Shown: piece by piece, positions 3,827 to 24,000 of the stretch
How positions within the stretch are numbered: the stretch's first letter is position 1
Layout of the letters: each line of letters begins with the position of its first letter
NCBI RefSeq assembly: GCF_008386695.1
Contig: NZ_VUOC01000004.1
Coordinates: forward strand, 598,327 to 622,326
DNA from: Chitinophaga agrisoli
Lineage (GTDB): Bacteria > Bacteroidota > Bacteroidia > Chitinophagales > Chitinophagaceae
Direction: 5' to 3'
Length of the DNA stretch: 24,000 bases
The notes under the pieces: model-generated
Told to the model about the DNA's origin: nothing
What the model saw: the letters and a program-made list of their open reading frames with translations, nothing else
The model's database searches: none
Program-made: the position numbers and the translations under genes

Positions 3827-4233
3827 AAAATTGGTACGCATGGTTGACCTTACAGACATTTATCATATTAACAAATTACGCCATGACGTCGCATTGACAA
3901 AACAGGGATGGTACGGACGTTCTCATTTTCCAGTATATTTTATTAGAATGATACTAAATGTTTATGGCCGTTCGATTAGTTGGCCGTCAAATTTGCAAAT
4001 GTTATGGTACCATATCTCATCACCATAAAAATCTGTGCATGCTCACTTACTGAAAAATGAAAAGCAAATGCCGTGGCACATCGAACCAGCCTAACGATGC
4101 TCACTGTTAATATACGCCTGATGCACACGGCTATCTACCGCACGCCGGACTTTTAACGCTCACGGGACACAGAAGCGCTCCATAGCTGTGCACACTTTCG
4201 TATTAACCAACCACTAAATAATAATCTAAATCA

Positions 4234-4758: not shown

Positions 4759-4816
4759 GGAGGAAATAGCCGTGCGTTCCGCAAGGATACCAATACCTGC
4801 TGCTACCGCGGCTGTC

Positions 4817-4855
4817 AAAAAAAATGACCGGGGAACACTGCCCCGGTCATTTTTT
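4817..4855. terminator. bidirectional rho-independent terminator between convergent genes
   Basis: Perfect 10-bp stem ATGACCGGGG (4824-4833) / CCCCGGTCAT (4841-4850) with the 7-nt loop AACACTG. It is flanked by AAAAAAA (4817-4823) and TTTTT (4851-4855). It sits 59 nt after the stop of 4234..4758 (+) and 11 nt after the stop of 4862..5122 (-). Confidence 0.8.
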
Positions 4856-4861
4856 CCTGCT

Positions 4862-5122
4862 TCAAGGCAACCGGTAATAGGGCGTTTGGCACGCATCCTG
4901 GTACCAGGTGCGGGTGGCCGCTCCAAAAGCCGTAGTACAGACAGTACCCGTTACTGAAGGGCCGCAAACATCGGGAAGCGTGGTAAAGGGGAAACACGCC
5001 GCGCCCAGGTTACTCTGTTTGTACCGCCCCTGCAGGAATACTTTGGCTTGCAATTTGACCGTTGCCGAAATACCAGCAACCATAAGACACACGATTAATA
5101 CTCTGATTTTTACATTTTTCAT
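4862..5122 (-). CDS. small secreted 4-Cys protein downstream of the SusC-like gene (possibly DUF6520-like)
   Basis: 86-aa ORF on the same strand as the transporter gene, 180 nt downstream of it. It has a signal-peptide-like N-terminus (MKNVKIRVLIVCLMVAGISATVKLQA). The mature ~60 aa carry 4 Cys (AACFPF, DVCGPS, GTVCTT, QDACQT), and the strong terminator follows immediately. The resemblance to the Bacteroidota DUF6520 small-protein family is from memory and unverified. Confidence 0.5.
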   Translation of the reverse strand: MKNVKIRVLIVCLMVAGISATVKLQAKVFLQGRYKQSNLGAACFPFTTLPDVCGPSVTGTVCTTAFGAATRTWYQDACQTPYYRLP

Positions 5123-5302
5123 ACTCCAAGGTTTTAAGTATTAGAAAATAAAAGATAACACATGCTATCTGCATCATTCAAATACCACAACGAACATCAG
5201 GCTTAGCCTATACGGCGCCTTGTCCGTCCCGGAAAGAGTAAAAACTGAAGTAGCCAAAGATTAAATAGCGCCTGTGAAACGGTTAGTGATTTCCTTCTGA
5301 TC

Positions 5303-8300: not shown

Positions 8301-8575
8301 TTATTTAAAAGCCATGCTAATGCCTTGTCGAGGGGAACATTTTTGAAGTCAACGGAGATGATTTCATAGCTATCCAACTGTTCATCATTGTAGAATGCCT
8401 GTAACCTGGTTTGTTCCCAAACCGTCTCGAAGAAGTCTTTTATCCTTATTTTCCGGGCTGTGTATGTAATTGTCCGCTCACCAGGAGGAATAACCTGTGA
8501 TTGCGCTGTTAGTGGAATTGCTGTTAGAAAAGCCAGAATGGCTATTATACTGAATTTGGGGATTAGGCGCCGCAT
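5303..8575 (-). CDS. SusC/RagA-family TonB-dependent outer-membrane transporter with N-terminal STN signalling domain
   Basis: 1090-aa ORF with a signal peptide (MRRLIPKFSIIAILAFLTAIPLTAQSQ). An STN-like segment follows (ITYTARKIRIKDFFETVWEQTRLQAFYND...VPLDKALAWLLNKRRLTWSYRRGTFVIFP). Next is a carboxypeptidase-regulatory-like domain (VTGIVCDEKMRPLPGVSVFTDTIGSVTDANGRFKL). The plug has typical blocks (IQGRVSGLYINQTTGLPGGGYNIRLRGRNSI, IASIEVLKDADATALYGTKGANGVILI), and a long beta-barrel region completes the protein. Confidence 0.9.
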   Translation of the reverse strand: MRRLIPKFSIIAILAFLTAIPLTAQSQVIPPGERTITYTARKIRIKDFFETVWEQTRLQAFYNDEQLDSYEIISVDFKNVPLDKALAWLLNKRRLTWSYRRGTFVIFPIKKNSDTALSRIIVAANTRSVTGIVCDEKMRPLPGVSVFTDTIGSVTDANGRFKLADMKRGSILQVRKSGYKPMLLSSYADSISIQLIALVAPLKLIDVSGTQQRQLTASISGVSEKDIETQPASNVLSIIQGRVSGLYINQTTGLPGGGYNIRLRGRNSIESITDPLILIDGVPLPPLLTNNFFEKQKTILQQDVQLIPLANIASSPLNLLSIHDIASIEVLKDADATALYGTKGANGVILIISKTPAPGEQSLTVNIYSGIGQATRFLRLLDSKQYTEMRRQAIRNDGRAASTISDYDILLWDTTKYTDWQRRMIGGTAHITDASLEIKGSRRQLFWRLSGLYRAESTVYPSSQFNYRKGSGRAQLNYSDKKGKIKTAASVSYVADRNILPAVDVTSFSTTPPTTPELYAGGKLNFANDFGNNPYVNFLQKSTEKSSIGQGFIRNTYAPAAGWLINAAFGFNYMKNRQVQVYPMSSFNPKDSMTAYSNFLDNRYQTTMFDASTQWKKQFNNTRVSVLFGTRLFWEHMQQEGVQEYFANDASLYGRSGAIGTLELFKPDSNFRAGSIYARAEVKRNDKYIVTFTASRDNSNRINNQNYSAVYGTVGAAWVFSRERWFNDSSFFSYGRLHGSWGYSGNDQYRERADTSKQIVLMDLLAGFGNSLARAPHAEKIRKAEIAVEMGFLDDKLTGTICYYNNRSWDQLLTAVYSNALNVGIPVNYPAVIVNRGVEVDVAAQWFRSGPLRINSSINISFPDTKLLDFPHIEEQDYRNFYRIGAPLDVALTYGMEGVDAGAGLYKFAYGGSDPQVIQKRPYAKSLVPVFYGGFQNNIVYKGFQLDLLFRFARQNNYNADFGLAPEAPGTMYNQPVTVLDRWQEGGDNVPVQRYTTNTGTVAGRLYKFALLSDKRIAAVNYLRLQSLMLGYQWSDRLLKRMKISSCRLYLQGVNLFTITNYKGRDPELITDEDIYPSLRVMTAGIQLSL

Positions 8576-9293
8576 TCACATGTTTCTTTTGGCCTGTAGA
8601 TTAATATACGATGCTTCCAATAATACGGTTTTTTATATTTAAAATAAAGTGGCGATGGGTGATTGGCTAACATAACACCTACTTAAATAAGCGAGTGAAA
8701 TACCGCAGACCAGCAACGAATTCATATTTAATTCAATTTCAATTTATGTTCATATAGCATATATAATTTTCTTAAAAACAAATAACCTGCAAGCAGTGGT
8801 ATTAAATCCAGTACTACAGCACTTGTTGAAACTTATACTGAAATTAAGCAATCACCCGACTCATAATGGTACTCACTCCTATTTTTTGCGTTATTAGCCG
8901 TGATAACAACAATCTTTTCGTATAGGTATCAAAAACATAATTTGCCCGATATGTTATTAATACAATTAAAAGAATAAACCGTCTCAGCCACGCGCCATTG
9001 GTCGCGAACGATATTGCTTTAGACAGCACCCTATCATCAAATATATTAGGTGATAATTACAGCATCTTAATACCAACTGAATAAATACTTAAACAAACTC
9101 ATGTCTGGATGCTCCGGCGGTTATTTGCCGTCATTCAAAAAAGCTCAAGCCTTCCTTGCAGCCCACTCCCCTTTAGAACAATATTGACGTATCCTGATCC
9201 AGCGACAGCGTCGTATTGATTTTTCTATCCGGGATCTACAAAACGTATTCCATAAAACAAGCATTGGGATTACAACAAGAAATCTGATTTAAA

Positions 9294-10637
9294 ATGAAAT
9301 GGGAAAAATTACTATCAGCCAAACGTTGGGGAAATGAGGCCAATTACAGCGAGGATCATAATGAAGCCAGATCAAATTTCACAAGAGATTACGACAGGTT
9401 AATATTCTCCTCCCCTTTCCGGAGATTGCAGAATAAAACGCAAGTTTTCCCACTCCCCGGAAGCATATTCGTTCATAATAGATTGACACATAGCCTGGAA
9501 GTGGCAAGCGTTGGACGATCCTTAGGAAACATCTTTTACAATAAGATAAAAACCAGGGACCCTAAAGTCGATGAGTCAGTTCAATTCATGAGCGAGATAG
9601 GAAATATTGTTGCAGCCGCGTGCCTCGCCCATGACCTGGGAAACCCTGCCTTTGGACACTCTGGAGAAGCAGCGATCTCAAGGTACTTTACGGATGGTGA
9701 TGGCAAAAAATACCAAAATACCTTAACCGATAAACAATGGAATGACCTCACTCATTTTGAAGGAAATGCAAATGCATTCAGAATGCTCACTCATCCATAT
9801 ATCGGAAAAGGGTATGGGGCATTCTGCTTAACCTATTCTACGCTCGCATCAATCGTTAAATATCCATGTTCATCAATTGCGGGTCACGACAAAACAAAAA
9901 TAAACAGAAAAAAATACGGCTTCTTTCAGTCCGAAGAAAAGTCGTTCGAAAAGATAGCGGCAGAACTGGGCTTAACAAGAACACAGGAAATCCCCTTGAT
10001 TTACAAGCGCCACCCACTGGTATATCTGGTAGAAGCAGCGGATGACATTTGTTACACAATAATTGATCTGGAGGACGCCCATCGATTAAAAATATTGACA
10101 TATCCTCAGGTCGAAGAGTTATTGTTTCCTCTATGCGAGGATGACAAATTAAGGAACAGACTAGATAACATCGAAGACCTTGACGCAAAGGTCAGCCTTT
10201 TAAGAGCAAAGGCCATTAACTCCCTTGTTTTGGATTGTTCCGAAAAATTCTTTGATAATCAAAATGTAATACTTCAAAGCGAATACAATAAATCACTAAC
10301 TGAAGATTTAAAACCAACATTACAGCCAATATGGGATAATATATGCAAAATATCGAGGGAAAAGATCTACAACTATTCCTCTGTTGTACAAATTGAAGTA
10401 GCCGGCTACAAGGTTATCGGCGGGCTGTTAGAGGAGTTTATACCCGCTCTGATTAACAACAATACTCATTATTATGAAAAGCTCGTCAAGTTAATACCGC
10501 CTCAATTTAAAAGTAAAACTCCCGATACTTATTCGAATATCCAAAGTGTTCTGGATTTTATATCCGGGATGACAGATCTATATGCCGTCGAACTATTTAG
10601 AAAAATAAAGGGTATTTCATTCCCTACTATTGACTAA
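9294..10637 (+). CDS. dgt: dGTPase-family dNTP triphosphohydrolase (HD domain)
   Basis: 447-aa ORF with the family-typical N-terminus: RSNFTRDYDRLIFSSPFRRLQNKTQVFPL, then HNRLTHSLEVASVGRSLG. The HD motif is AHDLGNPAFGHSGE (H113-D114 at nt 9630-9635). A C-terminal DLYAVELFR-type helix is present. Confidence 0.9.
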   Translation: MKWEKLLSAKRWGNEANYSEDHNEARSNFTRDYDRLIFSSPFRRLQNKTQVFPLPGSIFVHNRLTHSLEVASVGRSLGNIFYNKIKTRDPKVDESVQFMSEIGNIVAAACLAHDLGNPAFGHSGEAAISRYFTDGDGKKYQNTLTDKQWNDLTHFEGNANAFRMLTHPYIGKGYGAFCLTYSTLASIVKYPCSSIAGHDKTKINRKKYGFFQSEEKSFEKIAAELGLTRTQEIPLIYKRHPLVYLVEAADDICYTIIDLEDAHRLKILTYPQVEELLFPLCEDDKLRNRLDNIEDLDAKVSLLRAKAINSLVLDCSEKFFDNQNVILQSEYNKSLTEDLKPTLQPIWDNICKISREKIYNYSSVVQIEVAGYKVIGGLLEEFIPALINNNTHYYEKLVKLIPPQFKSKTPDTYSNIQSVLDFISGMTDLYAVELFRKIKGISFPTID

Positions 10638-10654
10638 TTACTCAAACGAAAAGC

Positions 10655-12634
10655 ATGCCTAACGATCCCAGACACCTAACAAAAAGCCGTTTCAAGCTGG
10701 CCCTCGAATGCCCGGCCAAACTTTATTACACAAACAAGCAAGAATATGTAAATAAAAAGCTAAATGATACTTTTCTTCAGGCCTTAGCCGAAGGAGGTTT
10801 TCAAGTAGGGGAACTGGCCAAACTATACTATCCAAACGGGCAAAACGCTGAGGCCCCTGATCACGAAGAGTGCCTCAGGATCACAAATGAGTTATTACAA
10901 CAGGAGAATATAGTAATTTTTGAGGCTGCTTTCCGATTTGAAAATCTTTATATCAGGGCCGATATCGTAATAAAAGAAGGTAATACTCTGCACTTAATTG
11001 AAGTTAAATCCAAATCCTATGATCCCGATACCGATAGCATCACGACATCGAAAGGTTCGATCAGCTCCAAATGGAAGTCTTATATTTATGATATAGCTTT
11101 CCAAAAGTATGTAGCTACCAAATCGTTCCCCCAATTTAATGTGACCGCTTTTCTTTGCCTGGTTGACAAAAGTAAAAATGCTTCCATCGATGGCCTAAAC
11201 CAAATGTTCTTACTATCAAAAAGTGATGGAAGAACCCGGGTAATCGTGCGCAAAACAGAAAACGCTGCCGATTTAGGACAAAAGATATTGATTGAATTAA
11301 ATGTGGACGATATCGTCAATAGCATATTAACGTCTAAAATATTACCGGATAACTTCTACGATAGTTTCGATAACAGAATTGCCTCCTACTCTAAACATTA
11401 TTTCAACGATACAAAGATGGACGCAGCAATTACGGGTCAATGCAAAACTTGCGAGTTCAGCGCCACTTCAAATGATATAGCGTCAGGGCATAAATCAGGC
11501 TTACACGAATGTTTAACAACGATTGCTAAATTTCAAGAAGCTGATTTTGAAAGGCCTCTGTTATGGGATATCTGGTATTTTCGCAAGACAAATGAATTCA
11601 TCCAATCCGGAAGATATTTTATGGATCAAATATCAGCGCAGGATCTGGAAAGCAGATCCACAAAAAAACAGGTTCCAGCCGGGCTATCAAGAGTAGACAG
11701 ACAGGCTCTGCAGCTCGAAAAGGCTGTCTCAGGTGATCACCAACAATTCATCGATACCAACGGGTTGAGGACCGAAATGGATAAATGGACTTTCCCACTT
11801 CATTTTATTGACTTTGAAACCACCGCCGTTGCAATTCCCTTCAATTCCGGACGCAGACCTTATGAGCCAATAGCCTTTCAATTCTCACATCACCAGGTAA
11901 ATAAAGATGGAACTATTGAACATGCCGGAGAATGGATAAATACCCAAGCTGGTATCTTTCCTAATTTCGAGTTCATTAGAAATTTAAAATCCCAGTTAGA
12001 GAAAGACGAAGGTACCATTTTGAGATATGGGCCTTATGAGAATTCAATACTAAACTCAATTTATACCCAACTACAAAATTCGACTGAAAAGGATAAGGAC
12101 ATATTAATGGAATGGATTAAAACCGTTACTCAATCTAAAGCGGACAGCGCAGAAAGTTGGCAAGGTAACAGGAATATGGTTGATCTGCTGGATCTGGTAA
12201 AGAGATATTACTACCATCCCTCCACCAAAGGCTCAAATTCCTTAAAAGATATATTACCTGCCGTATTAAATGAAAGTAATTATCTAAAGGAAAAGTACGC
12301 TCAACCGATATATGGACAAACAATCGGGAGTCTGAACTACAAAAAACATTCATGGATCAAGCTAGATGAAGAAGGCCAGGTTATCAATCCGTATGCCCTA
12401 CTTCCAAGGATAATTGACGGCTATAACAACGATACCCTGGACACAATCGCGGTTGATGACGAGGGAGAAATTTCTGACGGCGGCGCCGCAATGATCGCAT
12501 ATGCGAAAATGCAGTTTACAGAAATGACTGATAAAGAGAGAGAAATGATCTCTAAAGCGCTGTTGAGATACTGCGAACTGGATACGTTTGCCATGGTGAT
12601 GATCTGGGAGGCCTGGACTCATTGGTGTAAATAA
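10655..12634 (+). CDS. DUF2779-type protein: N-terminal PD-(D/E)XK (Cas4/RecB-like) nuclease + C-terminal DnaQ/RNase H-like exonuclease
   Basis: 659-aa ORF starting 17 nt after the dgt stop. The N-terminus LTKSRFKLALECPAKLYY is typical of DUF2779. The PD-(D/E)XK core is RADIVIK...LHLIEVKSKS (D103, E116, K118). A Cys set (C in LECP, then QCKTC ... HEC) resembles a Cas4/AddB-type cluster. The Exo-I-like motif is HFIDFETTAVAIP (D386 at nt 11810-11812), and the terminal motif is YCELDTFAMVMIWE. Confidence 0.8.
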   Translation: MPNDPRHLTKSRFKLALECPAKLYYTNKQEYVNKKLNDTFLQALAEGGFQVGELAKLYYPNGQNAEAPDHEECLRITNELLQQENIVIFEAAFRFENLYIRADIVIKEGNTLHLIEVKSKSYDPDTDSITTSKGSISSKWKSYIYDIAFQKYVATKSFPQFNVTAFLCLVDKSKNASIDGLNQMFLLSKSDGRTRVIVRKTENAADLGQKILIELNVDDIVNSILTSKILPDNFYDSFDNRIASYSKHYFNDTKMDAAITGQCKTCEFSATSNDIASGHKSGLHECLTTIAKFQEADFERPLLWDIWYFRKTNEFIQSGRYFMDQISAQDLESRSTKKQVPAGLSRVDRQALQLEKAVSGDHQQFIDTNGLRTEMDKWTFPLHFIDFETTAVAIPFNSGRRPYEPIAFQFSHHQVNKDGTIEHAGEWINTQAGIFPNFEFIRNLKSQLEKDEGTILRYGPYENSILNSIYTQLQNSTEKDKDILMEWIKTVTQSKADSAESWQGNRNMVDLLDLVKRYYYHPSTKGSNSLKDILPAVLNESNYLKEKYAQPIYGQTIGSLNYKKHSWIKLDEEGQVINPYALLPRIIDGYNNDTLDTIAVDDEGEISDGGAAMIAYAKMQFTEMTDKEREMISKALLRYCELDTFAMVMIWEAWTHWCK

Positions 12635-12736
12635 TTATACGACTCCAATCATTTGTATTATCTGAGCTATCATATTATCTTAATAAAAACAGATTAAGGG
12701 AAAACTACCTATCTCAATCTAATCCTCTATTTAAAT

Positions 12737-15598
12737 CTACTGAGATTCTAAAACATTCGCTCTTTCCCACAATTCTTCGGCGGATACCGCTGGATCAAGG
12801 CCAACATGCTTCATCCATATGGCTAACCATTGAAACATTCGATTCGGACTTTCCAGTCCGTTCTCACCAGTTAACCGTAAACTGCACAACAGGATCGCCT
12901 CCATCATTTTTGACAAATTATCGGAGGACTCTTTCCAATCCTCCACAATTCCAAGAATGGTGCAAAAATTTAACGTCAGGCGAAGATCATTAAATTCTAA
13001 TTTTCTGTGGCCCAACTCATTTATCAAAAGCCAAGCCCATTCTGAAATGGTTCGACCATATGGCGTCAGGCATATTACCTTCATGATATAGAATAATTTT
13101 ACAATAACCCGTCCAGGATCATCCCTAACACACCCTGGGTTGCTCTGTGTTGCAGAAAATCGCACGATGTATTCCAAGATCGAATGTCGAAGATCTACCA
13201 GCGCGTACGCAAACGCCGTTTCATCCAAAGATGGATGGACGGCTATTTCAGGATACTTTTCAATATACATTCCCAAAGTCCAAATAGTACGGCCGATATA
13301 CTCTCCGTGTCCAATATCTTTAAAGCCCTCAATCGTCCTGAAAAAATATGGAAAGCTTTCCAACTCATGGCCAATCTTATAAAGACATCTGGCGTAACAA
13401 TGCAGATTAGCCAATAGATCATCCTTGTAAAAATGTTCCTCCATAAAAGGGAGTATCGCATCAAACAGGACAATAGCTTTCTGAGGCTCCTTCAGTTGGT
13501 AATAAGCCATAGCCATTTCGGCCTTTATATAGTTCGCCTCATGATCATGCATCTCCGAGTCATTATTATTTTTATCTATCTCCACAAGACGTAGGGCTTC
13601 CTCATACAAGACAATGGCGGCTTTGTGATTACCTTTATTACGCTCAAGATTCGCGCGGGCCTTAGTGGCCATTATCCGGATTGAAAGGATCTGCGTGCTT
13701 TGCGCGAGCTCATCTAACTCATCTATAGTCTTCTCCTGTCCTTCAATATCAAACTGTCTTGATTGCATCGACGTCAATCCCAAATAATTATTAGCGGCTC
13801 CTTCAAACTCGCCTAGCTCCAAACTGGCCTGAATCCCCGCCCTATTTAGTATTACTCCATATTCAAAAAATCCTCTTAAAAAACAATATCTCCCTAACAA
13901 ATCATTTATAAGCTGGATGATAACAAGATATTTATTACGCTGCTCCTGGTCCTGATCTGCTCTGGAAACAATGATCTCTTCGCGTGCTATCCGAAACCCT
14001 TCTAAAAGATTAAGCAGCTCTTCATCAATCCATCTAAATATCAAAGCTAGATTTCCGTTATTGCCACCACCGGAAAAGCGCTCACTCACAAACCAACACT
14101 GCCATACTATCTGATTAATGGCTGCATTTCTTAACTGAACAAAACCTGTCGTTTCCAACATTTTTTCTTTTAAAAAAGGTCGAACAGGGTTAGCGACAAA
14201 TATTCTATCCTCTTTAACTTCCACAAAGAAAAATTGCATGAGAACAGCAACGGCAGTAGAAAAATCCGGCACCTGAGTATGAAGCGTTACTAACTTTAGG
14301 TTCAACCCACCAATAAATACTTGCAAATATTGCAAAGTCTCCTTCTGTTCTTCCGTCAATATATCATAAACGGTCGATAGACAGAGATCAAGCGCATTAG
14401 ATTTATCATGCTTATTCAACATAGGTCGTTTGAGCGCCCCTGTCTTTTTCAGTTGCGCTACAACTTCCGGCTCAGATTTATAGAAAATTAACAGTGAAGC
14501 CACAAGCTTCAACGACAGCGGATGTCCACTGCAAAAATCGAGCAACCACCTTGGGTTCCCCCCAATTATCCCCGCATGTCCCACCATCAACGTCTCTAAT
14601 AGTTGAAGGCTTTTTTGCACATCCAGGCCATCCACCGCAACTATTGTTTTGGGATAATCTATAAGTGACAGATCAATCTGGGAAGTCGCTATTATCTTTG
14701 GCGCCTGGGTTTGAGCAAGAAGTGTCCGGATAAATTCTTCTGTCTCGCTCCGTTGATGGATCAACAGTTTCTCCAAACTATCAAATACAAGGACTATCTG
14801 TAGCTTATCAAGGATTTCAAACAGCGAACTGCCAATATGTTCGCCCGTCAAACGAGATAATTGATTAATTAATACAATATTCAGATCATTAACATTGTTC
14901 ACTGTTTCAACATCAATCCATAAGACGTGGCAATCAGCAGGTATACTTTTCAACGCATTTAGCAACAACTCTGTTTTGCCGATGCCGCCCAAGCCCTCAA
15001 TTACTATGAACCGTTTCAGCGAAATCGCCCCGATCAATTCCGCTAGCTTTTCCTCCCTTCCTATAAATACCGGATGTGGGTTAGGGGCTTTAAACATTGT
15101 TCCAGCGTCCAGATCCCGCCTTAGTTGATCGCGCAGTCTTTCTATTAGCCTATCTTTTGTTTCTCGTAGTAACTGCCTTGAAATAACAGCATTATCGGCC
15201 TTAGTATGTTCTTCCTTTGCAACACGCACCAGATTATGATGATGGTGACTCAGCGACTCTGCATATCCTACGATGTGAGCGTTTTCTAAGGGATAGCCCT
15301 TTCCTGTGATTGGGCATTTACCTTGTATTTCTGTTTTCAGATAATCCTCAATATACCTAGGAATAGCTGGCCGCATCTGATCCGGGGCCGACCAGGGTTC
15401 CTTAAGGTACCCGTCAAATTCCAGGAGTTCCTTCTCTACAAAATAATTTTTACCTGCTATTACTTTGGACGCCAATTTCCTGGTATGCCCCAGGTTCAAC
15501 TTAGGAGCATTTCTCACATAGGCATATAATAACTCTTTTGTAATCCCCAAAAAAAGGGCGGCTTCTGTGTCATTTAATAACTTCTCTATAGCTTCCAT
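12737..15598 (-). CDS. STAND NTPase (NB-ARC-type P-loop) with N-terminal HTH and HNH-like nuclease module and C-terminal TPR/helical repeats; Avs-like antiphage candidate
   Basis: 953-aa ORF. Residues ~10-30 form an excisionase/MerR-like HTH (TEAALFLGITKELLYAYV). The Walker A motif is IVIEGLGGIGKTELL (G202-T209, nt 14972-14995). The Walker B motif is IVLVFDSLE. TPR-like repeats lie in the C-terminal half (e.g. HKAAIVLYEEALRL, AMAYYQLKEPQKAIVLFDAILP, LHCYARCLYKIGHELESFPYFFRTIEGF). Confidence 0.85.
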   Translation of the reverse strand: MEAIEKLLNDTEAALFLGITKELLYAYVRNAPKLNLGHTRKLASKVIAGKNYFVEKELLEFDGYLKEPWSAPDQMRPAIPRYIEDYLKTEIQGKCPITGKGYPLENAHIVGYAESLSHHHHNLVRVAKEEHTKADNAVISRQLLRETKDRLIERLRDQLRRDLDAGTMFKAPNPHPVFIGREEKLAELIGAISLKRFIVIEGLGGIGKTELLLNALKSIPADCHVLWIDVETVNNVNDLNIVLINQLSRLTGEHIGSSLFEILDKLQIVLVFDSLEKLLIHQRSETEEFIRTLLAQTQAPKIIATSQIDLSLIDYPKTIVAVDGLDVQKSLQLLETLMVGHAGIIGGNPRWLLDFCSGHPLSLKLVASLLIFYKSEPEVVAQLKKTGALKRPMLNKHDKSNALDLCLSTVYDILTEEQKETLQYLQVFIGGLNLKLVTLHTQVPDFSTAVAVLMQFFFVEVKEDRIFVANPVRPFLKEKMLETTGFVQLRNAAINQIVWQCWFVSERFSGGGNNGNLALIFRWIDEELLNLLEGFRIAREEIIVSRADQDQEQRNKYLVIIQLINDLLGRYCFLRGFFEYGVILNRAGIQASLELGEFEGAANNYLGLTSMQSRQFDIEGQEKTIDELDELAQSTQILSIRIMATKARANLERNKGNHKAAIVLYEEALRLVEIDKNNNDSEMHDHEANYIKAEMAMAYYQLKEPQKAIVLFDAILPFMEEHFYKDDLLANLHCYARCLYKIGHELESFPYFFRTIEGFKDIGHGEYIGRTIWTLGMYIEKYPEIAVHPSLDETAFAYALVDLRHSILEYIVRFSATQSNPGCVRDDPGRVIVKLFYIMKVICLTPYGRTISEWAWLLINELGHRKLEFNDLRLTLNFCTILGIVEDWKESSDNLSKMMEAILLCSLRLTGENGLESPNRMFQWLAIWMKHVGLDPAVSAEELWERANVLESQ
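15191..15322 (-). other. HNH-like nuclease motif region inside the STAND protein (residues ~93-136)
   Basis: The sequence is GKCPITGKGYPLENAHIVGYAESLSHHHHNLVRVAKEEHTKADN. H108, N122 and H131 have HNH-like spacing (14 and 9 residues). Only one Cys is present, so the usual CxxC zinc ligands are missing. A run of four His (H118-H121) precedes N122. Confidence 0.5.
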
Positions 15599-15645
15599 AG
15601 CTTAAAAATTATACCCCCAAAATAATCGTCATTTTCCCGTATGCT

Positions 15646-15653
15646 CAAAGTTA
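15646..15653 (-). promoter_or_regulatory. candidate Bacteroidota -7 promoter element (TAnnTTTG) for the STAND gene
   Basis: The plus strand reads CAAAGTTA, which is TAACTTTG on the minus strand. It lies 48-55 nt upstream of the ATG at 15598. I found no convincing -33 TTG, and this is a single short motif. Confidence 0.3.
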
Positions 15654-16131
15654 GTAGACATAGGTGTCTGTTGGTCATATATAAAATTTTTACCTGACTA
15701 TATATACGATTGAGTATCCAATACGGATTCACGGGCAGCAAAATACCTCCGTCTGAACTTTAATAAGCTTCCCCAACCTCACCGCGTTAACAACTAATTC
15801 ACATTTAAGTCCCCCAAATAATTGTATCCTTGCTGCCGCGTCTTGTTCCACACTTTTCAGGAGTACAGTGATAGTTAAAGAGAATAAGGAACTGACCACG
15901 TAAACCAATCGCTCATATTATGTTCACGTTACGCTTCGAACTCAAAAAACCTCGCCGCAGATCTACTTCGGAACTCTTTACACAAAGAATTTAATACGAT
16001 TTTATCTCCAGGCAAGCGAATGTAAACTTCCCGTTATGTGAATCTCATGTGAAAACAGGGTTTTCAGCGATCATTATTACTATATAGGAACCACGTATAA
16101 AACTAACCAAAACAATCAACAACACCGCGTT

Positions 16132-19100
16132 ATGGCAAGGATCATAAAGCCCCCCTATTTTGAATCGGTTGTAAATGCCGGAGAAAAGCGCCTGCTTGAT
16201 TACCTGGAGGTAAACCTCCCGGACAGCTTTTACCTGGTGCCTAATGTGGAGATCGCCTCCACCAATCCCCGTAACAACCGTATTCAGTATTGGGAGTATG
16301 ACCTGTTGGTCGTTAGCCCGCATGCCATTTATAATATAGAGAATAAGGACTGGAAAGGCCGTATAGAGGGAGATGACAACTATTGGTATATAAATGACCG
16401 CCAGCGCCAAAACCCGTTGAAGACCGGGAGGCAAAAAACAGCCGTCTTAACCACCCGGCTCAGAGAGCAGGATTCCTCCTGGGGGAGGGCATGGATCCAA
16501 AACATGGTCACGCTGTCTTATCCAAACACGTTTACCCCGTCCTTATGGCAGGAAGCCGGCCGGCTCAGTTTCCAGCTCAATGAGCAGCTGATCAGCTTTC
16601 TGACAGACCCCGCAAATGTGGGTAAAACAGAAAATGATATTGCAGACATTTACAGGGATATTGTAAAATACCTGGATGGTAGCCTCAGCAAAAAAGCGCC
16701 GGATGCAAAACGGGAGGTAGCAGGGTATGAAATAATAGAAATATTGCAGCAGGAGCCCAACTTCACGGAATACCTGGTAAAACCCAAAGGCGTGATCTCC
16801 TCTATTCAAAAAAGAGTAAAAGAATACTCTTTACAGGTAGCGGGCCTCTCACAACAAGCGCTCCTCCGGCGGGAAGAAGTTATAAAGAACCAGTATAAGG
16901 CCCTGCACAAGATCAAGGCAAAACCTTTTATCCTTAATGTGGAGTTTAAAATAGATGAAGAGAACCACCTGTTTTACGAAATATCTGATTTCCTGGATGA
17001 GAATTCCCTAAGGGCGGAGGCCAGGTCTAAAACATTCACCTTCCAGGAAAAGATCGGCATTCTCCGTAATATAATGGCCGCCCTGAAGGAAGCCCATAAG
17101 GAAAACATCTTCCACCGGGATATTAACCCGGATAATATCTATGTGATCAGCGGTTATGCCTATCTGGGGAATTTTGGAAAGTCTTACTTTACGGATCATA
17201 ACCACCAGGGGTATACGGTAATGGCCACCATCAACGAATCTAATGCCACCCCCTATCATCCATTGGAGTTAACGGTTGGGAATGCATCCCGCGCCTCTGA
17301 TATCTATTCGCTGGGGGTGCTCGCCTATTGGCTTTTTGTGGGCGAAGAACCATTCAATACCCCTTATGATCTTGACAGGATGGGTGGAAAGCTGTCTATA
17401 GATAAACTACCCTCTTCCCTTAACAAGGCTTTGCCCAAATGGCTGGATGAGCTGTGCAACCAAACCATTCTCACGGATGACCTGAAGCGGATTGAAAGCA
17501 TTGAAGCAGCAGAAATGCTGATCGAAGAATCTTTAAAAGAGAATGATAGCCTCGCTCCTACCCCACCAAATCCCCCCATCATTCAAACGTCTTCCATAGG
17601 CGCCTATGATCTGAAGGTGGGCGATAAGATAGGGGATTATGTTATTCATCAGATCTTAGGTAATGGCGGGTACTCAAGGGTCTTTAAAGTGAAACACCAG
17701 TTACAGGGGAAATATTATGCGTTAAAACTCTTTCATGAAAGTGTGAACGCAAGTTCCGTTATTGATGAATATAATGCCCTGGTAGGGTTAAGTCATCATA
17801 ATATAGTCCGGTTTGTATGGAATGGCGAAACGCCCAACGGACAATTTTATACATTGATGGAGTTCCTGGAAGGGGAAAACCTGAGTACCTACTCAAAAAC
17901 GGACGCCAGGCTGCCCATTTACAGGGTATATCAGCTGGCCAGGGATATCCTCAGCGCGCTCACCACCATGCAGCGCCTTGCCAAGCCCATCCTGCACCGG
18001 GATATAAAACCCCAGAACATTATCTGGGACAGTGAAAAACGCTTTGTGCTGATAGACTTTAATGTGGCGTCTTTTGTTGATGATAACCGGGACTTTGTAG
18101 GCACCAACCCCTACCTGGCGCCAGATCTTATTACCGATGGCTATAAAGTGAACTGGGATAAGTCCGCAGATACTTTTGCCCTGGGCATTACGCTCTATGA
18201 GCTGGTGTGCAAACAATACCCCTGGGCGCCCAAGAAAATGCCGGCCATGAGCATTGCCCCCATCCATCCCCGGGAATGGGAGCCCCGCCTGTCCACCGCT
18301 TTTGCCGCATTCCTGAACAAAGCGGTGAACCCAAGATCGGCGGAGCGGTTTCCCAACGCCCAGGAGATGCTGAACGCCCTGCTGGCCATTGGGGAAGATG
18401 ATATCATGCAGGAGCCCGGCATACCCGTGCCTTCCATAAAGACCCGGGATAATGAGGGGAATTTCATTAAATATCTTAACTCCCTGTTTAGCCAGTCCAA
18501 AGCGGGGAACTTTGGCACCCGGGCGAGCGAAAACATCAGCGGATTTGATAAGCTTACCTACACCGCGTCAAAACTGGATAAGAAGCTGCTGCCGGATATA
18601 CTCGCCGGCAAATACAAGCTGGTGATCATTACCGGCAACGCCGGAGACGGTAAAACGGCTTTTATTAAACGGATAGAACACGATCATTCCATAAAAGACC
18701 TCCGCCTGCACCACCATAAAAACGGCGCACAGTTTAAGATAGGCGGGGTGCCGTTTGAAAGCAATTATGACGGATCGCAGGACGAGCTGCAACAGGCCAA
18801 TAACGAGGTGCTGGAACGTTTCTTCAGCCCGTTTTCAGATCTGTCAGATTATAATAATGCCGCTGAAGGCAGGATCATCGCCATCAATGAAGGGCGCCTG
18901 GTAGAGTTCCTGAAAACCACCAATAAACATAGGTTCCTGCATGATACCATAGAAAACTATTTTTATAACGAAGGGCATCATGAGCTGCCGCCCGGTTTGA
19001 TGATCATTAACCTTAACCTGCGGTCCGTAGCCGCCCAGGACAGCCAGGAGCCCAGCCTGTTAAGAAGCCAGATCAAAGCGCTCACCAATAAAGAGCGCTG

Positions 19101-20274
19101 GCATAAATGTGATAGCTGCGCTTTGGCGAAAAAATGTTTTATCCGGTATAATGTCGCCTCCTTTAATGACTCTGCCGCAGGTGAAGAGGTTATTACGCGG
19201 ATGGAATGGCTGCTTAGAACCGCCAGTTTTAAACGGGAGCTGCATATTACCATGCGTGACCTGCGCTCGTTTATTGCGTATACCCTTACCAGGGACCATG
19301 AATGCGCGGATATTGAAACGCTGCTCTCCAACACCCAGACAAAACCGGAGCATTACTGGCAATATTATTATTTTAATATCACCAACCCATCCGTTGACGA
19401 CTCGGGCAACCAGGACAGGCTCATAAAACTGCTACGGGAAACAGATATTGGCGAGGTAGCCATCCCGGACCGCGACCGTGACCTGTTCTTTAGCCATCAT
19501 CAGTCCAACGACTACCTGGAGTTCTCTGACCGGGGATCAAGCCTGATCGATGAGTTCAATCAAAATAAGATCTGGGGGCCGGCACATGAGCAAGACAGCG
19601 CACTGATACAAAGGATCCGCACCAACCAGAAAGTATTTATCCGCCATCAGTATTTTGAAGGAAAATCGCAGCTGCTTTCTGTGGAAAACGGTTATGCATC
19701 CGCCGCCACCGATTCCTCCGAAACCATGTTCTCCTCCTACCTGCTTAGATTGCCCTACCACTCCGTTTTTAAATTTGTACGGGTGCTGGCACAGGGGGAT
19801 GACGGCGCCTATACCAAATCCAGTATTTCAAGAGCGATATCCCTTAATGAAGGATGCGACAACCGGGGCATAGATAAGGACCACCTGGTACTGGCGTCCA
19901 CGGATATCCGGGACCCCTATAGCAAATCTTTCAGGTTATTTGATCTCAACGATTTTGAGCTGTTTGTGAACAGGACCGATCACCTGGTGAAATACCTGGA
20001 ATATGCGCCGGACAGCCTCACCTTCCGGCACAGATCGCAAAAGCATATTAAACTGACCATTTCCCTTGATCTCTATGAGATGCTTTATTTTATTCAGCAG
20101 GGCTTTAGCCCCTCATTAAATGACCTGAGGGGGAAATTCGTGGAATTGATCATTTTCAAAAACCTGTTGGAGAACCTGACTTATAAGGAAGTAGTAGTGA
20201 CCAGTGACAATATGGATTTTTTCCGGATCAGCAAAGACGGGAGCCGTCTTTACATAGCACCAATGCAAGCATAG
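16132..20274 (+). CDS. 1380-aa multidomain protein: NERD nuclease-like domain + degenerate kinase-like domain + canonical Ser/Thr kinase domain + C-terminal P-loop NTPase module (PglW-like head; DptF-like tail hypothesised)
   Basis: This is the longest ORF in the window. The motifs are listed under the four domain features below. The stop TAG at 20272-20274 lies 2 nt before the next ATG. Confidence 0.9.
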   Translation: MARIIKPPYFESVVNAGEKRLLDYLEVNLPDSFYLVPNVEIASTNPRNNRIQYWEYDLLVVSPHAIYNIENKDWKGRIEGDDNYWYINDRQRQNPLKTGRQKTAVLTTRLREQDSSWGRAWIQNMVTLSYPNTFTPSLWQEAGRLSFQLNEQLISFLTDPANVGKTENDIADIYRDIVKYLDGSLSKKAPDAKREVAGYEIIEILQQEPNFTEYLVKPKGVISSIQKRVKEYSLQVAGLSQQALLRREEVIKNQYKALHKIKAKPFILNVEFKIDEENHLFYEISDFLDENSLRAEARSKTFTFQEKIGILRNIMAALKEAHKENIFHRDINPDNIYVISGYAYLGNFGKSYFTDHNHQGYTVMATINESNATPYHPLELTVGNASRASDIYSLGVLAYWLFVGEEPFNTPYDLDRMGGKLSIDKLPSSLNKALPKWLDELCNQTILTDDLKRIESIEAAEMLIEESLKENDSLAPTPPNPPIIQTSSIGAYDLKVGDKIGDYVIHQILGNGGYSRVFKVKHQLQGKYYALKLFHESVNASSVIDEYNALVGLSHHNIVRFVWNGETPNGQFYTLMEFLEGENLSTYSKTDARLPIYRVYQLARDILSALTTMQRLAKPILHRDIKPQNIIWDSEKRFVLIDFNVASFVDDNRDFVGTNPYLAPDLITDGYKVNWDKSADTFALGITLYELVCKQYPWAPKKMPAMSIAPIHPREWEPRLSTAFAAFLNKAVNPRSAERFPNAQEMLNALLAIGEDDIMQEPGIPVPSIKTRDNEGNFIKYLNSLFSQSKAGNFGTRASENISGFDKLTYTASKLDKKLLPDILAGKYKLVIITGNAGDGKTAFIKRIEHDHSIKDLRLHHHKNGAQFKIGGVPFESNYDGSQDELQQANNEVLERFFSPFSDLSDYNNAAEGRIIAINEGRLVEFLKTTNKHRFLHDTIENYFYNEGHHELPPGLMIINLNLRSVAAQDSQEPSLLRSQIKALTNKERWHKCDSCALAKKCFIRYNVASFNDSAAGEEVITRMEWLLRTASFKRELHITMRDLRSFIAYTLTRDHECADIETLLSNTQTKPEHYWQYYYFNITNPSVDDSGNQDRLIKLLRETDIGEVAIPDRDRDLFFSHHQSNDYLEFSDRGSSLIDEFNQNKIWGPAHEQDSALIQRIRTNQKVFIRHQYFEGKSQLLSVENGYASAATDSSETMFSSYLLRLPYHSVFKFVRVLAQGDDGAYTKSSISRAISLNEGCDNRGIDKDHLVLASTDIRDPYSKSFRLFDLNDFELFVNRTDHLVKYLEYAPDSLTFRHRSQKHIKLTISLDLYEMLYFIQQGFSPSLNDLRGKFVELIIFKNLLENLTYKEVVVTSDNMDFFRISKDGSRLYIAPMQA
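16153..16506 (+). other. NERD (nuclease-related) domain
   Basis: GEKRLLDYLEVNLPDSFYLVPNVEI...YWEYDLLVVSPHAIYNIENKDWKGRIEGDDNYWYIN shows the D...E-x-K arrangement and the 'copy number / new-event' layout typical of NERD domains. Confidence 0.7.
16717..17530 (+). other. kinase-like domain 1, predicted degenerate (pseudokinase-like)
   Basis: The catalytic loop HRDINPDN (H328) is intact and the subdomain IX block SDIYSLGVLAYWLFVGEEPF is present. There is no Gly-rich loop (EIIEILQQEPNFTEYLV), and the DFG triplet reads NFG (N347-F348-G349, nt 17170-17178). Confidence 0.7.
17605..18393 (+). other. kinase domain 2, canonical Hanks-type Ser/Thr kinase
   Basis: The Gly-rich loop is LGNGGYSRVF (from L509). 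The VAIK-type Lys is in YALKLF (K532). The catalytic loop is HRDIKPQN (H622). A DFG-equivalent DFN is at D642-N644, and an APE-equivalent is in NPYLAPD. The block ADTFALGITLYELVCKQYPW is also present. Confidence 0.85.
18490..20271 (+). other. C-terminal P-loop NTPase module with CxxCx5C motif
   Basis: The Walker A motif is LVIITGNAGDGKTAFI (G835-T842, nt 18634-18657). A possible Walker-B-like strand is RIIAINEGRL. The Cys motif is C993-x2-C996-x5-C1002 (HKCDSCALAKKC, nt 19108-19137). The remaining ~380 aa have no motif I recognise. Confidence 0.6.
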
Positions 20275-20276
20275 TT

Positions 20277-21836
20277 ATGGGCATAAAATTAAACAGGGAT
20301 GAGACCTCGTTCCGCAATGAACTGATCTTCACCGCGGACGCAAAGGCCGTAAATATAGACAATACGCTGGTGAACCTCTATATGCTCCTGAAGCACAATG
20401 GGATAAGACCCAAACAGCGGTCCGGGGAAAAGAACAATTCATTCGTGGACCTGGAAACATTGAAAGTTGTTTTCTCCAAACTGGAGGAAGAAGGCGCTAT
20501 AACTGGATTTAGCAGCAACCCGGAGGCCGCCGAGCTATGGATGCGCAGCAATCTCGTAAACATGGTGTATAGGGGGAACCTGGATAAAGAGAAGATCTCT
20601 TCCCTAAGACCCATTCACCTGGAGAGCTATAGGGTTAGAAATGCGGCCAATACGAGGGACTACAATACAGCCGACCAGGTTTACCTGATGCTGAACGCCA
20701 ACCCCGCTGTAAGGGAAGAGCTAAAACAGTTCTTAATGGAAGGCTGGAACCAGGCCACCGGCGAGATCACTGCCGGATCTGAACTGGATGTGGACAGCCT
20801 GGGCTTGCTGCACATCATCAAAAAAGTTAAACAAGGTTTCCTGGACAGCAGCTCCAGCCTGAACCAGATCCGGCCGCTGCTGCATGAGCTTTCTGAGCTT
20901 TATTGTGACGATGTAAAAAGATTGCTGGTCTATAAGCGATTAATACCCAGGAATGTGTTGATCGACTATTTTAAGACCCTCACCTCGTTCCATCTCTCCA
21001 TTTACATGCAGAAACTGATCTATACGCTGCCTCAAATGGTGGAATCAGGTTCTGATGCGGCGAGGGCGGACTGGAATATAGTTGTGGACGCCACGGATAA
21101 TTTTGAAAGCAAAGTGGCCCGTATTTCCGCGGGTGATGCGGAGGCGCTGAGCAATAATATGTATGATTATATTAAATCCACTTTCCAGATCAACGCCGCA
21201 CTGAGAAGGTTAAAATTGGACAAAAACAATTCAGACCATCTTGCCAAGGCCCTTCGCATCCTGAAGGACAAACCACAGGATTTTGAAATATACTTTGAGA
21301 CCCAGTGGGATAACCTGTATAATATCCTGAATGAAGAAGATAAAGCGCCGATAAATGATATTGTGAAATATGAGGCCACCTATTTTGACCGCTATATTGA
21401 ACTGATCCTGAAAGCGAGAAGCGCCTACCAGTTCCGCTATCATATGCAGCTGCTTGACAACCTGTCTCAAAAGAATAATGAGCGGGGTTTTATTGCCCAG
21501 GGCCGCAGCAGGAAACACCCCAGGAGGTATGTGATGGGCACCCGGTTACTGGAAACACTTGTTCAGATACTGGTCCTTGAGCCGGATGGGGCCGGATTTC
21601 AGACAAAAGTGCTGGCCATAGAAGACCTGATCCAGAAGATCAGGGAACGGTATGGGCTCATCATCAATGGCCTGTCTGAAGAGCGGTTCAAAGACGCCAA
21701 CCTTAACACACACCTTGCATTTAAGGAAAATGTGGAGGCATTCAAATTAAAACTCCGGCAAATAGGATTCTATAACGATCTAAGCGACGCCTATATACTT
21801 CAAAGAATAAGACCCCGCTACGAACTAAATGCTTAA
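20277..21836 (+). CDS. 519-aa protein of unknown function, second gene of the kinase operon (DptG-like position; unverified)
   Basis: The ORF starts 2 nt after the upstream stop. Composition and codon style match the flanking genes. I saw no catalytic motif. The conserved-looking C-terminus is RYVMGTRLLETLVQILVLEP...IRERYGLIING...QIGFYNDLSDAYILQRIRPRY. Confidence 0.8.
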   Translation: MGIKLNRDETSFRNELIFTADAKAVNIDNTLVNLYMLLKHNGIRPKQRSGEKNNSFVDLETLKVVFSKLEEEGAITGFSSNPEAAELWMRSNLVNMVYRGNLDKEKISSLRPIHLESYRVRNAANTRDYNTADQVYLMLNANPAVREELKQFLMEGWNQATGEITAGSELDVDSLGLLHIIKKVKQGFLDSSSSLNQIRPLLHELSELYCDDVKRLLVYKRLIPRNVLIDYFKTLTSFHLSIYMQKLIYTLPQMVESGSDAARADWNIVVDATDNFESKVARISAGDAEALSNNMYDYIKSTFQINAALRRLKLDKNNSDHLAKALRILKDKPQDFEIYFETQWDNLYNILNEEDKAPINDIVKYEATYFDRYIELILKARSAYQFRYHMQLLDNLSQKNNERGFIAQGRSRKHPRRYVMGTRLLETLVQILVLEPDGAGFQTKVLAIEDLIQKIRERYGLIINGLSEERFKDANLNTHLAFKENVEAFKLKLRQIGFYNDLSDAYILQRIRPRYELNA

Positions 21837-21840
21837 CGGA

Positions 21841-24000
21841 ATGCAACAGACAACGCAGATAAATACCTATTATAAACGGATCATTGACCTGATACTGGAG
21901 CTGTATCATGATGATCTGAGCAAAGCTATTCCAGGCCATTGTATGAAGATCACCGGATTGGGCCTGCATGAGCTGGAATTCCTATGGGAACTGATCCGGA
22001 GCAAATACAGCAATATCAATACCTTTATCATTGGCGAACAATCCACCGCTGATGAAAGGTTTATCACCGCCACCAAACTTATTGAATTAAGGAATAAACA
22101 AGACGCGCCGCTGTTAGTGCTGGTGCCATCCAATAGCCGCACATCCGCGGAAGACTCCTATGGAAATGCTACATTCAAAGAAATATCCCTGGAGGGCATT
22201 GAGCAAAGACTAAGGGAACAACTGATCAATAATATTCCCCTGGAATTTTCCGCCATCCTGAAGAACGAGATCCTGGGATCGCTTAATATGTCGCAGGTAG
22301 ACCCGGTGAACGTTGTTAACTACTTACTTTCCCTGGAACAAACAGGATATTCAACAACCTCCATCGGCAACCAGCTGTATCTCCTGAACCTGTTGCCGGA
22401 CGCCGCATTATTGCTGCAGCACGATAAGATACGATCCCGACTGAACTTCAACAATAAAAGCACTACGCTGCTGGCCACCTTTCATAAGCCGCTGTATGAC
22501 CGGATTGCCGAACTGCCATTGGAATCCAACTCGCTTCAGAAAGAGCTGGTAACATTCCTGAAGACTGAAAATAATGCCAGGAGTGCAGCCGATATATGCC
22601 GCATTGTGTATCAACACTATCCTAACCTGAATTTTTCCAACTGGCAGATCCCTGACCTGGATTTCCGGCATATCAAACTTTTTGCCGAAGAGATCAGGTC
22701 CGTTGATTTCTCGCAGGAGGAAGGCCGGCAGGTGCTTAAAGCGCAGGAGCGTACTTCTACTAAAGTAAGGGTAAGATTCTCTATGAGTCAAAACCCTAAA
22801 GAGATCTCCGGCCTTGCCTATTTTAAGGTGATCCTTATGGCGGTGAATGGCGGCGCCGGCGATGAGATGCAGGTAGTACGGAAGATCAAGAACTCCACAT
22901 CCAACAAGCCCTACCGGGATGTTACCGTGGAGCTGAACCCGAATATGATGGAAGAAGGCTCCTATTTCTTTAAAATATGGGCGGAGGACGAGCATGGCAA
23001 TATACTTAACAGCGATGATGATTTCAAAGAGCCTAAGATCCAGGCCGCCTGGAAAGAGGCGAAAGAAAAAAACAGCGCTACCCTGAAAAGCGCTTTCGAC
23101 TATAAACTTACCAGCGACACCAGCGATTTTGATTATGTGGTGGAAGAAAATTCCGAACGGGAAGAAAACCAGCGGAAGGACAAACTGAACAATATACTCC
23201 AGGCTTTCTTCAAATTCCGGATCGAGAAAATAAAATCAGAGGGAGAAACGGAAACGCCCAGGCCCTCCGAAACCTCCAACCTATGGATCACAGACCCGTC
23301 AAAACATACGTCTACTTTCCATATCAATTATTCAGACAGGCATAACTACCAGGTGAACCTGTCTTCCAAATTGCGGATGATAGAAGACCTGTTCCTAAAG
23401 AACAAGGAATGTTTTGGATGCATAAAAGTGCATCTCAGGAACAGCTCATCCGCCATAGGATTTGAATCCATGAGCTTCATCGCCAGCGAGATCTCGTCCC
23501 TTATACCCAAAGAGATCATCGCCCTCCGGAGCGGCATATATACCCGGATCCAGCAGTCCAACGCTGCCGGAAACGGCGTTTTAGAAACGGCTGATATCTT
23601 TAATTTCCCGGACCTGATCAGCGAATATATTCAAAAGCTCACGGAGTGGACCACGGGGCTGCAGCTGCAGATCCTGGAAGCCGATAAACAGGACGCTGAA
23701 CAACCCAGCATCCAGGACCTGCTGGCAGCAATACAGATGCTTGACCTGGTGAAGGTTAAAACAAAACTGCCGGATGGTAAACCGGTGGAGGCATTTTTAC
23801 TGTCTCCGCTTCACCCGCTGCGGTTAGCCTGGTGGACTGAACTGATGGACGTTTTTGCGGCATGGGAAACGCGCACACAAGGTTACCCGGGCTATAAGGA
23901 ATCCTGGTCCAAGGGATTGGCCAACTTATTTGAAGGCCAGCTTACGCCGGAGAACAACCCGCTGATCTTCGTTGAGCCGGGTACGTTTAAGGCGTTCCAT
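21841..24000 (+). CDS. large protein of unknown function, 3'-partial (more than 720 codons, runs off window); third gene of the kinase operon (DptH-like position; unverified)
   Basis: I translated frame 1 by hand from ATG 21841 to nt 24000 and found 720 codons with no stop (MQQTTQINTYYKRIIDLILELYHDD ... LSPLHPLRLAWWTELMDVF ... FVEPGTFKAFH). An in-frame ATG at 21829 would overlap the upstream stop (ATGCTTAA). The ORF is absent from the supplied track, presumably because it has no stop in the window. No Walker A motif occurs in the visible 720 aa. Confidence 0.8.
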   Translation, partial: MQQTTQINTYYKRIIDLILELYHDDLSKAIPGHCMKITGLGLHELEFLWELIRSKYSNINTFIIGEQSTADERFITATKLIELRNKQDAPLLVLVPSNSRTSAEDSYGNATFKEISLEGIEQRLREQLINNIPLEFSAILKNEILGSLNMSQVDPVNVVNYLLSLEQTGYSTTSIGNQLYLLNLLPDAALLLQHDKIRSRLNFNNKSTTLLATFHKPLYDRIAELPLESNSLQKELVTFLKTENNARSAADICRIVYQHYPNLNFSNWQIPDLDFRHIKLFAEEIRSVDFSQEEGRQVLKAQERTSTKVRVRFSMSQNPKEISGLAYFKVILMAVNGGAGDEMQVVRKIKNSTSNKPYRDVTVELNPNMMEEGSYFFKIWAEDEHGNILNSDDDFKEPKIQAAWKEAKEKNSATLKSAFDYKLTSDTSDFDYVVEENSEREENQRKDKLNNILQAFFKFRIEKIKSEGETETPRPSETSNLWITDPSKHTSTFHINYSDRHNYQVNLSSKLRMIEDLFLKNKECFGCIKVHLRNSSSAIGFESMSFIASEISSLIPKEIIALRSGIYTRIQQSNAAGNGVLETADIFNFPDLISEYIQKLTEWTTGLQLQILEADKQDAEQPSIQDLLAAIQMLDLVKVKTKLPDGKPVEAFLLSPLHPLRLAWWTELMDVFAAWETRTQGYPGYKESWSKGLANLFEGQLTPENNPLIFVEPGTFKAFH

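Follow-up and report, generated by a model that had tools for sequence, protein, structure and literature searches.

Does the gene cluster that closes a 24,000-nt stretch of the Chitinophaga agrisoli genome (contig NZ_VUOC01000004.1, positions 598,327 to 622,326; hereafter the window, in whose positions coordinates are given) encode a defence system of a kind not yet described, as a preliminary description of the locus proposed, or does it belong to a system that is already known? We have found that its three genes encode MAD6, MAD7 and MAD8, the mandatory proteins of the published antiphage system MADS (Methylation-Associated Defence System), and we put at roughly 85% the probability that they form a MADS core, that is, a restriction module of the DndFGH/SspFGH type with a PglW-like head on MAD6. 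The locus is thus a new, uncharacterised member of MADS and not an undescribed system. The genes are as follows.

16132..20274, + strand: mad6, 1380 amino acids (aa), ATG start (open reading frame (ORF) list; NCBIfam NF047741)
20277..21836, + strand: mad7, 519 aa, ATG start (ORF list; NCBIfam NF047733)
21829..24000, + strand: mad8, 5' part, 724 of about 1810 codons, frame open to the window end (NF047742)

The three genes lie on the same strand and are translationally coupled. The stop codon of mad6 (TAG, 20272-20274) is followed after a gap of 2 nt by the ATG of mad7 at 20277, and on either side of the stop codon of mad7 (TAA, 21834-21836) there is an in-frame ATG, at 21829 and at 21841, of which the former, with an 8-nt overlap, is the likelier start of mad8 because the alignment of mad8 to its relatives begins at 21829. 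The near-zero spacing of three same-strand genes that the preliminary description had reported is borne out by the ORF list and by both junctions, as is its statement that the third gene stays open for more than 720 codons: frame 1 is open for 724 codons from 21829 to 24000, with the 3' part of mad8 and anything beyond position 24000 falling outside the window.

The assignment rests principally on the equivalog models of NCBIfam, whose cut-offs are 460 bits for MAD6 (NF047741), 410 for MAD7 (NF047733), 175 for MAD8 (NF047742) and 990 for PglW (NF033442). The first gene product scores 769.2 bits against the MAD6 model (E 3e-231), the second 649.5 bits against the MAD7 model, with aa 5-515 covering model positions 1-529 of 529, and the translated 724 codons of the third 235.6 bits against the MAD8 model on aa 36-231. 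The PADLOC mad6 and mad7 models also match, the latter at 6.8e-47. As a canonical comparator we used an operon on a Piscinibacter plasmid, in which eight genes exceed the cut-offs for MAD1 to MAD8; the window MAD6 aligns with the MAD6 of that operon (1391 aa) from end to end (residues 1-1380, 28% identity, E 4e-129), and the giant protein that joins a NERD domain, two kinase domains and a P-loop module is therefore a normal MAD6 and not a new fusion. The window MAD7 is 100% identical to the product of locus tag F0L74_21630, which is annotated only as a hypothetical protein.

MADS was discovered in Pseudomonas aeruginosa SMC4386, where eight genes, mad1-mad8, form its operon (Maestri et al., bioRxiv 10.1101/2023.03.30.534895; Cell Host Microbe 2024), and its authors' detection model treats MAD6, MAD7 and MAD8 as mandatory components and MAD2 and MAD5 as accessory ones (bioRxiv 10.1101/2023.03.30.534895). 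The mandatory trio of that MacSyFinder model is present in the window, adjacent and on one strand, and the window has in common with the P. aeruginosa operon the order MAD6-MAD7-MAD8, the tight coupling and the architecture of the giant MAD6. We gathered 86 related loci, 45 from genomes (nearly all of Bacteroidota) and 41 from metagenomes; none found in the genome scan is more than 83% identical to the window. Conservation of the trio across genomes, which the preliminary description had left to be checked, was found: the same three genes recur, with order and coupling unchanged, in about 85 other loci, and the arrangement is therefore not a product of chance.

The domains of MAD6 are the following.

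16174..16515, + strand: NERD (PD-(D/E)xK-type) nuclease domain, aa 15-128 (Pfam PF08378, 3e-15)
16717..17541, + strand: degenerate kinase-like domain, approximately aa 196-470 (second Pkinase stretch in Pfam; motif inspection)
17638..18375, + strand: active-type Ser/Thr kinase domain, aa 503-748 (Pfam Pkinase, 1.8e-54)
18565..20271, + strand: DndF/SspF-like P-loop nucleotide-kinase core and C-terminal domain, aa 812-1380 (PADLOC, tblastn)
18634-18657, + strand: Walker A motif GNAGDGKT, aa 835-842, with K841 inside the motif

Pfam and motif inspection agree here with the order of NERD domain, degenerate kinase, Ser/Thr kinase and P-loop given in the preliminary description, whose numbering of K532, D624 and K841 is also correct. 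The putative catalytic residues of the NERD domain (D57, E70 and K72) are invariant in 40 of 40 aligned MAD6 sequences, as are K532 (in YALK), D624 (HRD) and D642 (DFN) of the active-type kinase and the Walker A K841. By motif inspection the degenerate kinase keeps HRD but has GNFG in place of DFG and has no Gly-rich loop. The Ser/Thr kinase domain matches kinases in the PDB at values reaching 3.5e-20.

Kinship with Dnd, Ssp and type 2 BREX systems

To which of the better-known systems is this trio akin? The tail of MAD6 (aa 760-1380) matches the PADLOC SspF models (1.2e-24, 2.8e-21 and 7.6e-19) and the DndF model (4.8e-6), and in a tblastn search it finds a protein annotated as DptF on a Priestia megaterium plasmid (2e-16), so that the DptF-like character first ascribed to it from the P-loop and gene order is upheld. 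MAD7 matches the PADLOC SspG model at 1.8e-7; a profile built from diverse MAD7 sequences aligns collinearly with the DptG of the same Priestia plasmid (hhalign, E 1.7e-4, probability 49%) and with a G-like protein from Rhizobium (hhalign, probability 96%). Against the PDB, MAD7 gave no match, and its AlphaFold2 model has a pLDDT of 76.5 and a pTM of 0.79. MAD8 resembles the Priestia DptH-like DUF87 protein weakly but collinearly (BLASTP 3e-4; hhalign 2.1e-5, probability 77%). It has no match to a DptH or SspH profile, and one MAD8 homologue carries the Joint Genome Institute name DptH. The proposal that the second and third genes are DptG-like and DptH-like thus stands for MAD7 through the SspG and DptG matches and may hold for MAD8 in the weaker, collinear form, and the profile comparison that had been proposed for it gave a divided result, since the NCBIfam models for DptF, DptG and DptH returned no match to the trio at E <= 0.1 whereas the PADLOC models for SspF, DndF and SspG did match.

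The relatives of MAD8 are 1775-1833 aa long and carry a C-terminal HerA/FtsK-like ATPase, a feature that would place the family beside the DndH/DptH-type giants and that is seen in the relatives but not in the part of MAD8 within the window. The AlphaFold2 model of residues 1-724 (pLDDT 83) contains an alpha/beta domain, a helical region, a beta-sandwich and further alpha/beta domains. For MAD8 aa 341-398 (22840-23040), NCBIfam shows weak similarity (E 9e-4) to the beta-sandwich region of a glycoside hydrolase, and Foldseek a match with a CARDB domain; each of these would fit the beta-sandwich domains reported in DndH.

With DndFGH/DptFGH and SspFGH, therefore, the trio shares a three-gene layout with similar sizes, a DndF/SspF-type core and a G-like MAD7; the difference is that relatives of the window pair the trio with N6-adenine methylation by MAD2 and MAD5 and not with phosphorothioation. 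With PglW of type 2 BREX, MAD6 shares the head of NERD domain, pseudokinase and kinase, but the C-terminal half of PglW consists of winged helix-turn-helix and iSTAND-like domains, where MAD6 has the DndF core (PMC12839542). It is very improbable that the locus is itself a variant of type 2 BREX (Pgl) or a phosphorothioate-dependent DptFGH trio. PglW models do match the N-terminal half of the first gene product (NCBIfam 8.7e-69, PADLOC 9e-68), and SspF, DndF and SspG models match the MAD6 tail and MAD7. The score against PglW NF033442 is nevertheless 232.5 bits, far below the cut-off, and the match covers model positions 46-765 of 1391; the window contains no PglX, PglY or PglZ and no dnd or ssp genes; and the related operons that were scanned or annotated have an N6-methyltransferase and a specificity (S) subunit as flanking genes. 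We have accordingly rejected membership of type 2 BREX, for which the PglW match is confined to the N-terminal half and PglX and PglZ are missing from the window, and membership of the phosphorothioate-dependent DptFGH systems, for which equivalog matches and, within the window, dnd/ssp genes are missing. The preliminary description had already remarked that PglX, PglZ, dnd/ssp genes and a methyltransferase were not to be seen upstream, and this is true of the window as a whole.

These comparisons support the reading in which a PglW-like head is joined to a P-loop module of DptF type and the partners are candidate DptG-like and DptH-like proteins. Much the same relationships have been reported before. 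The supplement to the MADS study gives Mad7 as related to DndG (HHpred 99.5%), Mad8 as related to HerA, and PADLOC matches of Mad6 to PglW and SspF; DndF variants with an N-terminal NERD domain followed by an inactive and an active S/T/Y kinase have been described (Rakesh, Aravind, Krishnan, NAR 2024, PMC10853773), and the same group has described the identical NERD/kinase head in PglW (PMC12839542). Because these relationships are already in the MADS supplement and in PMC10853773, and all three proteins reach the equivalog level for MAD6, MAD7 and MAD8, the suggestion of an undescribed defence system is not supported. In MADS loci the effectors are consistently three DndFGH-like proteins, one of them with a PglW-like head, and this links MADS, the Dnd/Ssp systems and type 2 BREX.

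Operon form in relatives and a proposed mechanism

What accompanies the trio elsewhere? The conserved operon of the related loci reads MAD2-MAD5-MAD6-MAD7-MAD8-PP2C phosphatase, preceded in some of them by a DUF6577/AbiEi-like gene. Counting loci with enough flanking DNA only, MAD2 lies upstream of mad6 in all 62 of 62, MAD5 abuts mad6 in 64 of 65 (the 65th being a partial match), and the PP2C gene directly follows mad8 in 73 of 74. In the four relatives viewed gene by gene, one of them (L008, 1753-17689) by profile scans and three plasmid loci by annotation, MAD2 and MAD5 are the genes 5' of the trio, and in two of the four the PP2C gene is 3' of it. In the Hymenobacter and Bacteroides plasmid copies an annotated methyltransferase and specificity subunit are directly 5' of the kinase gene, and in the Bacillus thuringiensis copy the gene in this position is annotated as a 1309-aa hypothetical protein. 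Compared with the canonical eight-gene operon, the close Bacteroidota and metagenome relatives are without MAD1, MAD3 and MAD4, and L008 exemplifies this streamlined, Bacteroidota-type MADS. Between MAD2 and MAD5 there is no room for MAD3 or MAD4 because the genes abut (tblastn and gene coordinates). Bacteroidota are absent from the phyla listed as carriers of MADS in the preprint, which does report MADS operons of varying completeness (bioRxiv 10.1101/2023.03.30.534895).

Other arrangements were also seen. A UvrD-like helicase ORF of 1040 aa lies between mad2 and mad5 in Aureispira (L012, 1410-4532) and in one metagenome locus (L060). On a Rhizobium anhuiense plasmid (L048, 9766-23931) we find a sister architecture, in which a protein of 1330 aa with NERD, kinase and DndF-like parts stands with a G-like protein of 607 aa and an ATP-binding protein of 1646 aa; two N6/N4 DNA methyltransferases lie downstream of this trio, and the NCBI Prokaryotic Genome Annotation Pipeline gives it no MAD names. 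On the Priestia megaterium plasmid (L047, 7256-20739), genes annotated as dptF and dptG stand with a DUF87 (DptH-like) gene next to the genes of a Dam methyltransferase and an endonuclease of the AlwI family. There are no dnd genes within 12 kb, and the plasmid exemplifies the uncoupling of a DptFGH trio from the genes for phosphorothioation.

In MADS, N6-adenine methylation at a bipartite motif tells self from non-self: invaders without the methylation are restricted, and phages that escape carry it. In P. aeruginosa, mad2 encodes the N6-methyltransferase and mad5 a specificity subunit, the predicted partner of MAD2; defence requires each of mad2-4 and mad6-8, and deletion of mad2 is viable but abolishes defence (bioRxiv 10.1101/2023.03.30.534895). 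The DndFGH complex has DNA nickase and translocase activities (PMC11662687). By analogy, MAD6, MAD7 and MAD8 may assemble on DNA as a DndFGH-like complex, in which MAD7 and the N-terminal domains of MAD8 would contact the DNA and the HerA/FtsK-type motor of MAD8 would translocate. Target sites that are unmodified (unmethylated) would then license nicking or cleavage, and the Ser/Thr kinase, together with the PP2C phosphatase encoded 3' of mad8 in relatives, could constitute a phospho-switch that switches or amplifies the response.

Modification genes and the state of this copy

Is the copy in C. agrisoli a complete MADS? Here the window differs from its close relatives, in that it is further without MAD2 and MAD5 upstream of mad6 and is the sole exception among the approximately 65 loci in this respect. 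At the DNA level, homology to 36 relatives sets in at 16129-16132, which is the mad6 start codon, and where the relatives have mad2 and mad5 the upstream DNA has genes for a dGTPase, a DUF2779 protein and, divergently transcribed, a STAND/TPR protein. The two features next to mad6 are these.

15599..16131, no strand: intergenic region in place of mad5/mad2, 533 bp (synteny break relative to all relatives)
12737..15598, - strand: STAND-like NTPase with TPR repeats (Pfam matches below gathering thresholds)

Several points weigh against reading the trio as a MADS core that works as such a restriction module. In the window proteins, the NCBIfam MAD6 and MAD8 models cover no more than aa 1-615 and aa 36-231, respectively, and mad8 is cut by the end of the window, so that its ATPase is seen in relatives only. 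The mechanism would follow from homology, and a review of 2026 still gives the restriction step of MADS as unknown (PMC12904381). There is no MAD2, MAD5 or any DNA methyltransferase in the 16 kb upstream of mad6, nor elsewhere in the window; with the MAD2 of a relative as query, C. agrisoli does not appear among the 120 matches listed (all of at least 82% identity); and the region 15599-16131 has no exact Bacteroidota -7 box (TAnnTTTG) on the mad6 strand.

Because the upstream mad2-mad5 module is missing, the window copy either depends on modification genes that lie elsewhere or has been left as an orphaned core. Under the second of these, mad2 and mad5, with the native promoter, would have been lost or replaced by the low-GC block of dGTPase, DUF2779 and STAND genes, leaving mad6-8 intact but the defence gone; this account is possible, although we hold the odds to be somewhat against it. 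The synteny exception, the missing -7 box and the shift in GC content (38-42% upstream, 45-50% in the operon) fit such a loss. No remnant of either gene was found in nt 1-16131, where tblastn with one MAD2 and 64 upstream MAD5 segments gave chance-level matches only (best E 0.017), and at the breakpoint nothing convincing in the way of repeats or transposon scars was found. A MAD2 that had co-evolved with the C. agrisoli trio would be expected, judging from other loci, to be about 85-88% identical to that of the relative, and its absence among the listed matches is suggestive of loss but not proof. The viability of the P. aeruginosa mad2 deletion, which no longer defends, shows what such a state may look like (bioRxiv 10.1101/2023.03.30.534895). 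On the other side, all three reading frames run without interruption, for 1380, 519 and 724 codons, and all catalytic and nearly all invariant residues are kept: the window proteins deviate at 2 of 289, 2 of 108 and 2 of 84 of the columns in which the other 39 loci show no variation, which is within the range of other loci, and judged by sequence mad6, mad7 and mad8 look intact and functional. Also on this side is a dN (non-synonymous divergence) of about 0.10 to the nearest relative, with dS (synonymous divergence) saturated, although a recent loss cannot be dated by it; as dS is saturated for nearly all pairs, a dN/dS test for relaxed selection after loss of the methylase is uninformative.

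It is alternatively conceivable that the system is complete but rearranged, with its modification genes downstream of mad8 and PP2C or elsewhere in the genome and acting in trans. We consider this unlikely, though the Rhizobium plasmid trio, which has two DNA methyltransferases downstream, makes it plausible; the core genes are intact and conserved, and the operons of varying completeness reported by the MADS authors (bioRxiv 10.1101/2023.03.30.534895) are in keeping with it. Such a layout is found, however, in none of the roughly 65 close relatives, and a MAD2 acting in trans would also be expected in the identity range given above, where the matches listed include no C. agrisoli protein.

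The intactness of a trio without mad2 and mad5 in cis would also accord with a stand-alone, modification-independent system of the DndFGH type that senses infection through the P-loop kinase or the Ser/Thr kinase head. The preliminary description had already suggested that the operon may do without a modification partner. DndFGH has been argued to be commonly decoupled from the modification module as a stand-alone counter-invader system (Rakesh et al., PMC10853773), and the Priestia plasmid has its dptF, dptG and DptH-like gene without dnd genes nearby. Yet the only experimentally tested MADS needs its methyltransferase for defence (bioRxiv 10.1101/2023.03.30.534895), and all close relatives keep mad2 and mad5; we regard it as rather improbable. 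Its specific form for C. agrisoli, in which the core, presumably with PP2C, has been cut loose from the methyltransferase and specificity genes but is still a working defence, activated by nucleotide-kinase and Ser/Thr-kinase sensors and not by absent methylation, seems to us similarly improbable. The MADS core in the window is a natural 'methylase-less' core, which could help to test whether MAD6-8 act, or are tolerated, without the modification module, and as such it bears on the restriction mechanism of MADS.

Neighbouring genes

What of the genes that now border the core? The STAND-like protein (953 aa) has Pfam matches to nSTAND1 (2e-5), NB-ARC (0.0018), AAA_16 and TPR, all under gathering thresholds, no match in PADLOC, and no assigned domain in its first approximately 170 residues; a TAnnTTTG -7 box is found on its strand (-) at 15646-15653. 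The gene is not part of MADS in any relative. Further upstream, within 9294-12634 (+), are a dGTP triphosphohydrolase (NCBIfam PRK01096, 456 bits, with the cut-off at 439; PADLOC dGTPase, 6e-66) and, 18 nt 3' of it, a DUF2779 protein of 659 aa. The dGTPase, DUF2779 and STAND genes make up a low-GC block (38-42%) beside the MADS core, which may be a small defence island.

Rfam and tRNA scans of the window gave no matches. At its 5' end we note a region of about 2.2 kb (980-3160) without an ORF longer than 85 aa, followed at 3164-4758 by two short ORFs (203 and 174 aa), both with matches to the FecR C-terminal domain, which adjoin a SusC/RagA receptor with an STN domain (5303-8575, -); 980-4758 has the look of a FecR-type anti-sigma region that has decayed or been broken up.

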